A stretch of 64,000 nt of DNA from the sequence record OP778610, one strand, 5' to 3'. The position numbers and the translations under genes were made by a program. The number at the start of each line of letters is the position of its first letter. Within the stretch, counting starts at the first letter, position 1. Positions 1,691 through 4,920 of the stretch are shown here, in pieces. The notes below the pieces were generated by a model. The model was not told the origin of the DNA. It worked only from the letters and a program-made list of their open reading frames with translations, and did no database searches. Source of the stretch: Escherichia phage W70.

Positions 1691-2920
1691 ATGCAAGCAA
1701 CTTATCAACGTATGGACCAAACCATGTTCAAAAAACGTATCAGTATCCGTGATATGGAACCACTGATCCGTCTGGGCGCTTCCATCGGTAAGACCGTGTT
1801 CTTTTTTGGTGGTGCAGGTCTTGGTAAGTCTGAAAAAGTAAAACAGATCGCGGACTCTATGTTCCCACATCGTGTAGGCAATAACCTGTGTGATGTTCGT
1901 CTGTCTGATAAAGAGCCACAAGATATTGCAGGCATTCCGATTCCGATCTCTTATCCAGATCCAAAGACTGGTGAAGAAGTTACCCGTACTGTATATGCTG
2001 TTCCAAACTTCTGGCCTACCGATCCTGATTGGGAAGGTATCGTGTTCCTGGATGAACTGCCGAACGCACCATTGGGTACTCAGCACTCTGCATATCAGGT
2101 TATTCTTGATCACGTTGCAGGTGAGCATAAGTTCCCGAAAGGTACTGTGTTTGTAGGTGCGGGTAACCGTGATACTGATGGAGCAGGGACAACATCTATG
2201 CCTGGTCCACTGGTTAACCGTATGATCATCGCCGAGGTTGATTATAATCTGGATGTGTGGATCGAAGATTATGCGATTCCGTTCCGTCTGCATCCGAACA
2301 TTATTGGTTTCTTGAAGCAGTTTCCAGAGCATTTCTATACTGGTGACGTAGAAAACCGAAGCACTCCGGTTTATTCATCTCCTCGTCAATGGAAAACAGC
2401 ATCTGACATTCTGTATAAGTACGATGCTGGCGAGATTAATGAATTTATCGCAGAGGTTGCCCTGGCAGGTACAGTTGGTGAAGGCTTGGAAGTACAGATC
2501 CTTGCTTACCATTTACGTGCTAAAGAACTTCCTCCGATTGAAGATATCTTTAGTGGTGCAGTTAAAGAACATAAACTTGATCGCAGTAAGAACGACCTTG
2601 TTTACGTACTGGCACAAACTGGTCTGCGTCGTATGGAAGATGAAGTTATGGATAACGATATGACTGATGATAAGTTCCTTGAACGTGCAGGTAACTTCCT
2701 TACGTTCATGTACAATAACTATTATGCAAACAACAAGGATACGATGATTGCTTTGATCTTGGGCGTGTTCCGTGGTCCAAACGATAAGCCATCTATCCTG
2801 ACTGTTAACCCGAAACGTCAGAAAATGATTCCGCTCATGCGTAAAAGTTGCCCGACTGTTTCTGCCGCAGTTATGGAATACATGACTCGCTATGGTCAAC
2901 TGATTAAAGAATTCGAATAA
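1691..2920 (+). CDS. AAA+ ATPase, MoxR/CbbQ-like
   Basis: Walker A GGAGLGKSE, Walker B FLDELPNA, sensor GAGNRD; SD AAGAGGAG upstream. Confidence 0.6.
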   Translation: MQATYQRMDQTMFKKRISIRDMEPLIRLGASIGKTVFFFGGAGLGKSEKVKQIADSMFPHRVGNNLCDVRLSDKEPQDIAGIPIPISYPDPKTGEEVTRTVYAVPNFWPTDPDWEGIVFLDELPNAPLGTQHSAYQVILDHVAGEHKFPKGTVFVGAGNRDTDGAGTTSMPGPLVNRMIIAEVDYNLDVWIEDYAIPFRLHPNIIGFLKQFPEHFYTGDVENRSTPVYSSPRQWKTASDILYKYDAGEINEFIAEVALAGTVGEGLEVQILAYHLRAKELPPIEDIFSGAVKEHKLDRSKNDLVYVLAQTGLRRMEDEVMDNDMTDDKFLERAGNFLTFMYNNYYANNKDTMIALILGVFRGPNDKPSILTVNPKRQKMIPLMRKSCPTVSAAVMEYMTRYGQLIKEFE

Positions 2921-3000
2921 TCTCTTGACAACGAAAAACAGTTAACTTAATATAAGGGCATCTCGAAAGAGGTGTCCTTTTTTAATTTGGAGAAAATGAA

Positions 3001-4539
3001 ATGGCAAAACTTACGATTGAAGAAAGCAATATGATTGAAATGCAAGTCTCTGAAGCAGAGCGTATCATCGAGGCTGCTAGTCTACAACTGATGCGGTTTA
3101 AGCCCTTCTACGGGGTAATGCTTTCTTCTATGCCTGTTAAAAAGGCGACGGAGTGGTGTAGTACAATGGCGACTGATGGACGTAACCTGTATTACCATCC
3201 AGAGTTCGTTGCAGGTATGACAGAAGAACGTAAAAAATTGGTACTTGATCGACTTTCCAAAACTGAGAAAGATCCTAAAAAGCTGAAAGAGTCCACTGAG
3301 TTTATTAATGTCTTCTATCGTCGCAAGACTGCCCGTGAGCTTGCTCTTATTCTTGAGCACGAATGTGATCATGTGATCTCTGATCATGCCTCTCGTGGTA
3401 AAGGATTTAATCATGAACTTTACAACATTGCGGCTGACCATCGTATCAATACAACGGCTGTGCTTATTCACCAAAAAGGGGATGAGTTAGGTAAAGCATG
3501 GTTCCCTGCCGGAGAGAGAACAGTATTTGATAAGAATGCTGAGTTTGGATTTATGGCCTGGTCTTACTGTGATTTCCGATTCAAAGATATGTATACTGAG
3601 CAGATCTATGAAATCCTGAATAAAGAGCAAGATGATAAAGAAAAATCCAAAGGACAAGGTTCTGGTTCTGGAAGTGGAGAGGGTGATGGTGAAGAGGGTG
3701 ATCAAGGTCGTAAAGGTGTTGATCAGCACATGGACCAGAACGGCGATCCAGAAGATTCAGAAGGCGATAGTGTCGAAGATGCGTTAGGAATCGACCGTAA
3801 AGCGAAGCCTAAGCAAACAGCAGAGGAACGCCAGTATAACGATGGGGTTATGCGTCGAGCCATTGAGAATGCCGTACAGGCAGCAGGAAGCGGTGCGCCG
3901 GAAGATGCTCGTCGTTTTGTAGAAGCAGCAGGTAAACCAAAGATTAACTATCTTCGTTTGTTGCGTAAAACTATTGAACGTCTGTTTAAAGATGATGTAT
4001 CATATCGTCGTTTGTCACGCCGTAGTCACTCGTTAACTCGAACTCTTCGTAGTTCTGGTTACTTGTCTGGACGACAGACGATTGGTTTACCATCGAAGAA
4101 CAAACAGAAGACTATTCGTGCGGGTGTCTTCTTCGACGTATCGGGATCATTTAACGATGATCTATTGCGTCCAACAATGCGTGAGATTCGTGGATTATGT
4201 AATCTTTACGACGAATTTGAGGTCACGATGGCTTGCTGGTCAACAAAGGTTGGTAACATCGAGACGTATACGAAAAGAAACGTTGGTGAGATTGCTGACT
4301 ATAAGATCAAAACGACATTTGGTACGGATGTTTCTTGTGTGTTTGAAGCATTAGATGAAATGGAAGACCCTATGGATCAGATCATCATCTATACTGACGG
4401 TTACTTTGCTGATGTATCCCAAAAGAAAGATTGGGCCAAAAAGTATGGTAAGAATGTTCTTTGGATCATCCTGGGCCGTGGGTCTTCGTTCACCCCACCT
4501 TTCGGCAAGGCAATTGATTTTGACAAGTATCTTAAATAA
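3001..4539 (+). CDS. DUF2201-like protein: putative HExxH metallopeptidase-like N-domain plus VWA-like C-domain
   Basis: HExxH in LEHECDH; Gly/Ser/acidic low-complexity linker (aa ~215-250); C-terminal half VWA-like; directly follows AAA+ gene. Confidence 0.55.
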   Translation: MAKLTIEESNMIEMQVSEAERIIEAASLQLMRFKPFYGVMLSSMPVKKATEWCSTMATDGRNLYYHPEFVAGMTEERKKLVLDRLSKTEKDPKKLKESTEFINVFYRRKTARELALILEHECDHVISDHASRGKGFNHELYNIAADHRINTTAVLIHQKGDELGKAWFPAGERTVFDKNAEFGFMAWSYCDFRFKDMYTEQIYEILNKEQDDKEKSKGQGSGSGSGEGDGEEGDQGRKGVDQHMDQNGDPEDSEGDSVEDALGIDRKAKPKQTAEERQYNDGVMRRAIENAVQAAGSGAPEDARRFVEAAGKPKINYLRLLRKTIERLFKDDVSYRRLSRRSHSLTRTLRSSGYLSGRQTIGLPSKNKQKTIRAGVFFDVSGSFNDDLLRPTMREIRGLCNLYDEFEVTMACWSTKVGNIETYTKRNVGEIADYKIKTTFGTDVSCVFEALDEMEDPMDQIIIYTDGYFADVSQKKDWAKKYGKNVLWIILGRGSSFTPPFGKAIDFDKYLK

Positions 4540-4548
4540 GGAGGGTCT

Positions 4549-4920
4549 TTGAGCGAGTATACTTACAAGTTGTCAGTTGGTAGGCGTGGTGTGGTTATGA
4601 CTATCAACATGATTAATGAGAGTGCGGAGGCTGTGAAGTGGTGGGCCTCCACCTTTAATGGGAAAGGTTTTACTTTATCGCGTCATAAGATTGAATCAGG
4701 AAAGCCGATAGATCTTGTCAAGGAGGACACTTTCTTGTATCCTGATCGTATCAGTGATGAAGACATTGATTTCCTGTCTGCCACGGTTGGTAGTTTGTTG
4801 GATGAAGAGCCGGATATTATAAGGTTGCTCTCTTTGCTTACGGCAATGTGGTCAGCAGGTCATGACGAGGAAAGTATGCACACGATGGTAAGGAATACGT
4901 TGAGACGTTGGTCTAAGTAA
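4549..4920 (+). CDS. hypothetical protein
   Basis: TTG start 5 nt after strong SD AAGGAGGG; 123 aa. Confidence 0.5.
   Translation: MSEYTYKLSVGRRGVVMTINMINESAEAVKWWASTFNGKGFTLSRHKIESGKPIDLVKEDTFLYPDRISDEDIDFLSATVGSLLDEEPDIIRLLSLLTAMWSAGHDEESMHTMVRNTLRRWSK

Follow-up and report, generated by a model that had tools for sequence, protein, structure and literature searches.

The sequence analyzed here is a stretch of 64,000 nucleotides from Escherichia phage W70 (sequence record OP778610), which we call the window, and the subject of this work is a pair of adjacent genes on its + strand, at 1691-2920 and 3001-4539, separated by a spacer of 80 nucleotides. The first gene codes for a MoxR-class AAA+ ATPase of 409 residues that resembles gp24 of phage N4. 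The second codes for a gp25-like protein of 512 residues, in which a predicted zinc protease domain (zincin), a low-complexity linker, and a VWA domain follow one another; it is called the adaptor below, after the role that we propose for it. The two open reading frames (ORFs) are co-directional and lie exactly where an initial annotation, made from the sequence alone, had placed them. Coding on the + strand fits the GC skew in the part of the window that holds the pair, and the ORFs antisense to it (1622-2332, 2513-2899, and 3082-3474) match no phage protein family.

The 512-residue protein, which is 100% identical to W70_33 of Escherichia phage W70, matches two Pfam families one after the other: DUF2201_N ("putative metallopeptidase domain"; 4.4e-25, 89.3 bits for a cut-off of 23.2) and DUF2201 ("VWA-like domain"; 1e-7, 32.6 bits for a cut-off of 26.4). 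These scores are far above chance, and the protein is a member of the DUF2201 family. Its N-terminal domain contains the zinc-binding and catalytic motif HECDHVISDH (H120, E121, H124, and H129; positions 3358-3387), which overlaps the LEHECDH of residues 118-124. Among 34 homologs, with identities down to 22%, none departs from the three histidines, and at least 90% keep E121. This domain is a zincin with an intact HExxHxxxxH motif and a predicted protease. Its profile finds the minigluzincin MJ1213 (3e-4) and, with lower significance, the M48 peptidases BepA and HtpX (0.03-0.25), the alignments running across a strand and the HExxH helix. The match is weak and local, as it is the edge strand and the HExxH helix of minigluzincins (MJ1213, projannalysin) and M48 proteins (BepA, HtpX) that align with the window zincin. 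The latter differs from both in its invariant third histidine, five residues past HExxH, and in being soluble and fused to a VWA domain.

The zincin is followed, at about residues 213-270 (3637-3810, as read from the sequence), by a low-complexity linker of Gly, Ser, Asp, and Glu, the sequence and length of which differ widely between homologs. Within it, residues 221-235 have a predicted local distance difference test score (pLDDT) below 50 and are predicted to be disordered. The VWA domain occupies about residues 372-510 (4114-4530) and has a complete metal ion-dependent adhesion site (MIDAS), composed of D379-x-S381-G382-S383 (4135-4149), T442, and T465-D466, all of them invariant in the 34 homologs. 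In the AlphaFold model (pLDDT 82.3), one finds a helical N-terminal domain, a disordered stretch, a helical middle part, and a compact alpha/beta C-terminal domain, and the solved structures closest to the VWA domain include that of NorD. The succession of HExxH motif, linker, and VWA-like half that the initial annotation had proposed for this protein is thus borne out by the Pfam matches, the invariant motifs, and the disorder of residues 221-235.

The ATPase is more divergent. The initial annotation had looked to AAA_5/MoxR profiles for the first protein as it did to DUF2201_N/DUF2201 profiles for the second; the latter succeed, as just described, but the former do not, since the sequence of the ATPase has no Pfam-A or NCBIfam match even at an E-value of 0.1. 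Because the curated hidden Markov models (HMMs) fail on the sequence itself, the protein had to be assigned by other routes. The only protein family that the sequence itself matches is PHROG 1297, named "ATPase" (7.5e-101). None of the 77 database relatives of the ATPase carries a precomputed Pfam domain, and phmmer searches of the PDB sequences with either protein of the pair returned nothing, or matches to the low-complexity linker only. Yet the expected motifs are in place. Among 35 homologs, the Walker A motif GGAGLGKS (residues 40-47; 1808-1831) has G40, G43, G45, K46, and S47 invariant, and the Walker B motif FLDELP (residues 119-124; 2045-2062) has D121 and E122 invariant. Also invariant are A157-G158-N159-R160, N176-R177, and P231-R232. 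The AGNR of residues 157-160 is a candidate for sensor 1 with an adjoining arginine, and individual arginines may act as finger or as sensor 2.

A profile built from the 35 homologs finds in the PDB the AAA modules of midasin (7e-12), followed by ClpB and p97. The AlphaFold model (pLDDT 88.6) has the strand order of AAA+ proteins, with a beta-hairpin (82-89/96-103) after helix 2 and short strands before the strand of sensor 1 (152-158); as modeled, these hairpins are like those of MoxR/dynein-type AAA+ proteins. The best Foldseek matches of the model are NorQ, CbbQ2, the MoxR protein CHU_0153, and dynein. BLAST links the protein, at 1e-34 to 3e-42, to ATPases encoded beside distant DUF2201 genes, and two of these, when scanned directly, exceed the Pfam thresholds of AAA, AAA_3, and AAA_5. 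Because such homologs pass the cut-offs, the missed HMM match reflects divergence and not the absence of the fold. The midasin profile, the structural matches, and the BLAST links to Pfam-positive ATPases therefore identify the 409-residue protein as a divergent MoxR-class AAA+ ATPase, with some 120-150 additional helical residues at the C-terminus that NorQ-type ATPases lack. The MoxR-like assignment made at the outset thus stands. GenBank records of close relatives already carry the name "MoxR ATPase"; the name "ribosomal protein uS19" given to one relative is an annotation error.

Both proteins align by hhalign with those of phage N4: the ATPase with gp24 (1.1e-33 over 295 columns, extending past the AAA+ core) and the adaptor with gp25 (4.8e-46 over 358 columns). 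Judging by these alignments, the pair is the Vequintavirinae counterpart of N4 gp24/gp25. Gene order and orientation are the same in N4, and gp25 has the same DUF2201_N and DUF2201 architecture as the window adaptor. The N4 proteins are smaller (352 against 409 residues for the ATPase, 380 against 512 for the adaptor), and pairwise identities are only about 21-28%. Relative to gp25, two insertions specific to the clade enlarge the zincin of the window adaptor, at about residues 75-112 and 157-190, and the long Gly/Ser/acidic linker is absent from gp25. No Pfam AAA model picks up the window ATPase, while gp24 gives a borderline match.

Several names given to these proteins in databases are wrong. 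The label "HNH endonuclease" is attached to the adaptor family in PHROG 1314, in the RefSeq entry of N4 gp25 (3165-4307 of locus L007), and in many GenBank records, but no HNH domain is matched in Pfam or NCBIfam. The real HNH_3 genes are separate ORFs, inserted beside the DUF2201 gene in Pectobacterium phage CB7 and in Escherichia phage A7_1, which makes this name a misannotation. The label "anti-sigma factor" belongs, in the Vequintavirus isim, to a different gene, a 346-residue ORF directly 5′ of the adaptor gene, which has no Pfam match and shows no relation to the ATPase (hhalign probability 0.2%); nothing supports the label. The name "tail protein" on some phage records of DUF2201 is also an annotation error.

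The initial annotation had described such a module as known genomically and uncharacterized in phages, and this agrees with the literature. N4-like phages (Schitoviridae) have 14 core genes, two of which are gp24 and gp25, listed as "unknown" and "vWFA domain" (PMC4193335; also PMC7650795); both are reported as middle transcripts (PMC4193335). A pair made of a MoxR AAA+ protein and a metallopeptidase-vWA protein was described by Iyer et al. in 2021 in "group 2.2" jumbo phages (PMC7824862). Its domain architecture and pairing are identical to those of the window pair, and both window proteins directly match the Rak2-like jumbo phages CBB and K64-1.

Genes of the two families show conserved linkage. 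Linkage was counted in two adaptor subfamilies, one of IMG/VR viral sequences and one of Clostridia, rather than in the whole DUF2201 family. In 65 of the 66 loci of the former and in all 74 of the latter, the adaptor gene is preceded by a co-directional ATPase homolog, which in the Clostridia is adjacent to it. The ATPase also precedes the adaptor in N4, in the environmental loci L002, L004/L005, and L006, in phage CB7, and in the jumbo phage CBB. One environmental viral subfamily has a small ORF between the two genes (for example, 5639-5956 of L004, 105 residues, no Pfam match), and the median gap between the BLAST matches of ATPase and adaptor is 572 nucleotides (65 IMG/VR loci, L098-L177). 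A tblastn search of 50,697 phage records matched 345 with the adaptor and 841 with the ATPase, the carriers including Vequintavirinae, Certrevirus, phAPEC8-like, Rak2-like jumbo, and N4-like phages, and PBS1. The adaptor profile matches 30,639 clusters, defined at 50% identity, among 1.84 billion representatives (E <= 1e-3), of which 11,636 at <= 1e-30. In Clostridia, the MoxR-DUF2201 pair is present in at least 299 matching species-representative loci (L008-L010, L006, L016-L095), and in all 55 loci with enough sequence an SNF2-family helicase gene lies upstream of it. This helicase has about 1170 residues and the Pfam domains WH_1, DUF8437, SNF2-rel, and Helicase_C. A WYL regulator is sometimes found nearby, and L008-L010 also have an Mrr-like gene. 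PADLOC recognizes no system in the Clostridial operon, with only generic helicase matches for the SNF2 protein.

The window DNA is 93-96% identical to that of the Escherichia phages A73, A7_1, LTH01, A5-4, and UPEC06, which are classed in Vequintavirinae. The phage is an rV5-like, non-jumbo member of this subfamily, of 140 kilobases (kb). As the module is present in every relative of the phage, its occurrence in an rV5-like phage is expected, and the window itself offers nothing unexpected in this respect. The pair is set in a divergent arm, among small nonstructural genes and beside a gene for an alarmone hydrolase.

Putative transcription signals surround the ATPase gene. A σ70-like promoter, TTGACT-16-TATACT (1633-1660, + strand; 10/12 consensus matches), lies 31 nucleotides 5′ of the ATPase start codon, and CB7 has an equivalent TTGACT...TATAAT at the same place 5′ of its MoxR gene. 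A second one, TTGACA-17-TAATAT (2925-2953, + strand; also 10/12), lies in the spacer. It abuts a hairpin resembling an intrinsic terminator (2954-2979, + strand), which was found by a terminator scan 34 nucleotides past the ATPase stop codon and has a stem of 11 base pairs, a GAAA loop, and a T-run. The spacer RNA folds with -19.4 kcal/mol (z -2.97). The TTGACA of the spacer site is also found in CB7 (L012, 3437-3490), together with a hairpin and T-run at the matching position but with different stem and loop sequences. Since CB7 keeps a hairpin there with a different stem and loop, one may argue for selection on the structure. The 5′ arm of the hairpin would be missing from transcripts that start at the 2925-2953 site, so that upstream transcripts could stop at it while those initiated there continue. 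These promoter and terminator readings are suggestions only. With this proviso, the ATPase gene looks like a transcription unit of its own, with a conserved host-type promoter before it and a terminator-like hairpin after it, so that less adaptor than ATPase could be made; the conserved σ70-like sites would also be consistent with an early expression of the pair. The initial annotation had suggested an immediate-early block, but N4 gp24/gp25 are reported as middle genes (PMC4193335), and the immediate-early class is thus a weaker point. The spacer is in addition a recurrent insertion site of HNH homing endonuclease genes. Such a gene occupies it in A7_1 (L015, 2994-3488) and CB7 (L012, 3472-3984), and by annotation also in A5-4, and is absent from it here (2921-3000) and in A73, LTH01, and UPEC06.

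Three neighbors on the + strand complete the locus. The ORF at 527-1090 codes for a small HD-domain alarmone hydrolase of the RelA/SpoT type, with 187 residues. The initial annotation had named it a (p)ppGpp hydrolase. The RelA/SpoT-type hydrolase was recovered, but the substrate is less certain: among solved structures, a "(p)ppApp hydrolase" (7smg, 3e-19) matches it best, ranking above the hydrolase domains of Rel/SpoT and above MESH1. Hence, (p)ppGpp is one option only, and ppApp may be the substrate in place of ppGpp or besides it. The label "GTP pyrophosphokinase" of the UPEC06 ortholog is wrong, as the protein is hydrolase-only. The pair is directly flanked by an ORF matching PHROG 8242 (1087-1620, 177 residues) and by one matching PHROG 12385 (4549-4920, 123 residues; the true start is probably the ATG at 4597), neither of which has a Pfam match. 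Both hold the same positions in the Certrevirus CB7 (57% and 36% identity); neither was detected near the pair in isim, in N4, or in the environmental loci. They were considered as a possible third partner of the pair and rejected, being shared only with Certrevirus.

Taken together, the domain identities, the intact catalytic and binding motifs, the homology with N4 gp24/gp25, and the conserved gene linkage lead us to propose that the pair is probably a two-part, ATP-driven remodeling protease of the MoxR-VWA type. The 409-residue protein would form an AAA+ hexamer, and the 512-residue protein would be an adaptor docking onto the ATPase ring. Through the MIDAS, its VWA domain would hold a target protein by an acidic side chain. 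ATP hydrolysis would then pull or twist the adaptor and its flexible acidic linker, by which the captured protein would be presented to the tethered zinc protease, or the protease would be unmasked, and cleavage would follow. Docking and pulling on the linker are conceived here by analogy with NorQ-NorD, where the hexamer pore takes up an extension of the VWA domain and a linker of NorD is remodeled by the ATPase (PMC13036017). If the terminator after the ATPase gene were leaky, the ATPase would be in excess over the adaptor, and the lower amount of the latter would fit one adaptor per hexamer, as described for NorQ-NorD. The pair is not annotated as a virion component and is probably expressed before the late genes. 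Given the middle class of the N4 homologs and the mixed genomic contexts, a nonstructural and pre-late role is favored, and the pair most likely acts on an intracellular protein complex in the early-to-middle (replication) phase.

Some observations weigh against this proposal or narrow it. In isim, the ATPase ortholog (isim_67, 37% identity) lies 3.6 kb away from the adaptor gene and on the opposite strand, in the opposite arm near SleB and rIIA/rIIB (L013/L014), and strict co-transcription of the pair is therefore not required. Phage contexts are mixed, and in CBB the pair comes, in the same direction, after a block of genes for the tail tube, head completion, and virion structure. Promoter-like sites are no denser in the region than in shuffled sequence (22 against 22.6 expected), so that an "early block" cannot be argued from site counts, and the promoter assignments draw solely on where the sites lie and on their conservation in a single further genus. 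The window VWA domain is minimal (about 140 residues), with no obvious equivalent of the "finger" by which NorD enters the pore, and docking may therefore differ from that of NorD. Complex formation, stoichiometry, protease activity, timing, and target are what we infer, and literature searches turned up no experiment on a DUF2201 protein or on a homolog of gp24/gp25.

A first alternative is that the pair is a chaperone-protease of virion morphogenesis, involved in head or tail assembly and proteolytic processing. It was put forward for jumbo phages, by analogy with a MoxR/VWA pair needed for tail development in the Acidianus two-tailed virus (PMC7824862), as a prediction and not as a result. 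The place of the CBB pair at the end of a block of structural genes is in line with it, as is the presence of some virion-protein genes near the gp24/gp25 homologs of roseophage RPP1 (PMC4193335). However, N4 gp24/gp25 are reported as middle and not late (PMC4193335), and in contrast to CBB, where the pair abuts virion genes, the window pair belongs to a non-jumbo phage and sits among small nonstructural genes, beside the alarmone hydrolase and behind host-type promoter-like sites. The pair is also abundant in bacteria without any viral context, as in the SNF2 operon of Clostridia and more generally in view of the 30,639 clusters of the family. We thus regard a morphogenetic role as possible but rather unlikely.

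A second alternative is host takeover or counter-defense, in which the VWA domain would capture a host protein such as a defense effector or a regulator, the ATPase would unfold it, and the zincin would destroy it. The location of the pair in a probable early arm suits such a role, and so does the adjoining small alarmone hydrolase, plausibly a counter to alarmone-based host responses. This hydrolase does not travel with the pair outside the clade of the window phage and Certrevirus. Predicted conflict systems of bacteria have MoxR-vWA pairs with peptidase effectors at their center (PMC7159879; PMC12839542); they include the ternary systems of the VMAP, iSTAND, FtsH, and beta-propeller types (Kaur et al. 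2020, PMC7159879). The window pair resembles the MoxR and vWA core of these ternary systems, in which a peptidase is sometimes fused to the vWA protein, yet none of their third components (VMAP, iSTAND, FtsH, or propeller) is conserved beside it. Its peptidase is N-terminal to the VWA domain and predicted to be active, whereas the peptidases in the effector position of those systems are mostly of trypsin or caspase type and often inactive, metallopeptidases being rare. PADLOC gives nothing significant for the pair among the window proteins or for N4 gp24/gp25. Besides, the pair is conserved in 345 (adaptor) and 841 (ATPase) phage records, spread over many families and hosts, and belongs to the core of N4-like phages. 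Counter-defense genes are usually patchy in distribution, unlike a pair of the gp24/gp25 type. A counter-defense role is accordingly quite doubtful.

A third alternative places the pair in DNA metabolism, where it would remodel or clear DNA-bound protein complexes, in the manner of AAA+-assisted removal of proteins from DNA by metalloproteases. The neighborhoods give this idea its substance. The Clostridial pair is preceded by the SNF2-family helicase wherever this could be scored; the N4 pair is next to dCTP deaminase, followed by rIIA/B, a helicase, and a polymerase; CBB has DprA and thymidylate synthase nearby; and in environmental loci one finds gyrase B (L002), ThyX, and an AddAB-like helicase-nuclease (L006). 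The middle class of the N4 homologs (PMC4193335) also points in this direction. Context is nonetheless the sole evidence, and large phages bring together many early and middle genes that have nothing to do with one another. In neither protein do the Pfam, PHROG, and NCBIfam scans detect a DNA-binding domain, and the association with SNF2 is seen in Clostridia and so far in no phage. We consider a role in DNA clearance improbable on present evidence.

The weakest alternative, that of a chaperone inserting metal cofactors like NorQ/NorD, CobS/CobT, or BchI/BchD, with a "zincin" that merely handles metal, draws on the NorQ and NorD structures that are closest to the ATPase and (among others) to the adaptor and on the common role of MoxR-VWA pairs in metalloenzyme maturation (PMC13036017), but it is very improbable given that at least 90% of the homologs retain the HExxH glutamate needed for catalysis, that the proteins with which the domain aligns, minigluzincin and M48, are true peptidases, and that no client metalloenzyme is consistently linked to the pair in the environmental loci, N4, CB7, or CBB. 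The known pairs NorQ-NorD, CbbQ-CbbO, and RavA-ViaA, which mature or reactivate metalloenzymes, have no peptidase domain, unlike the window pair.

Returning to the remodeling protease that we favor, it could be taken one step further in the direction of the third alternative. The pair would then be a dedicated ATP-driven protease that strips or cuts DNA-bound proteins as a core step of genome replication in phages of several families, its targets being the host nucleoid, a stalled polymerase, or a complex blocking the replisome, and its relatives in Clostridia, which share an operon with an SNF2 translocase in hundreds of species, would do likewise on chromosomes. This is a long shot. If it were true, the pair would represent a new and widespread machine of prokaryotes and viruses for the clearance of protein-DNA complexes.

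Of these elements, the architecture and pairing in phages (2021, PMC7824862) and the status of the N4 homologs as core genes were already known. New here are the explicit equivalence of the pair to N4 gp24/gp25, the finding that curated HMMs miss this clade of ATPases, the conserved unit of promoter-like site, gene, and terminator-like hairpin, the homing endonuclease insertion site, the quantified linkage, and the SNF2-MoxR-DUF2201 operon of Clostridia. For annotation, this means that a subfamily of ATPases is invisible to Pfam and NCBIfam and that its partner is widely mislabeled as "HNH endonuclease" or "anti-sigma factor."

The gp24/gp25-type pair is among the few gene sets common to large lytic phages as different as N4-like podoviruses, rV5-like and phAPEC8-like myoviruses, and Rak2-like jumbo phages. 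Its study would characterize a new coupling of a MoxR motor to a protease. As its carriers include phages employed in therapy and biocontrol, knowing its target would also account for a core step in the infection by such phages.

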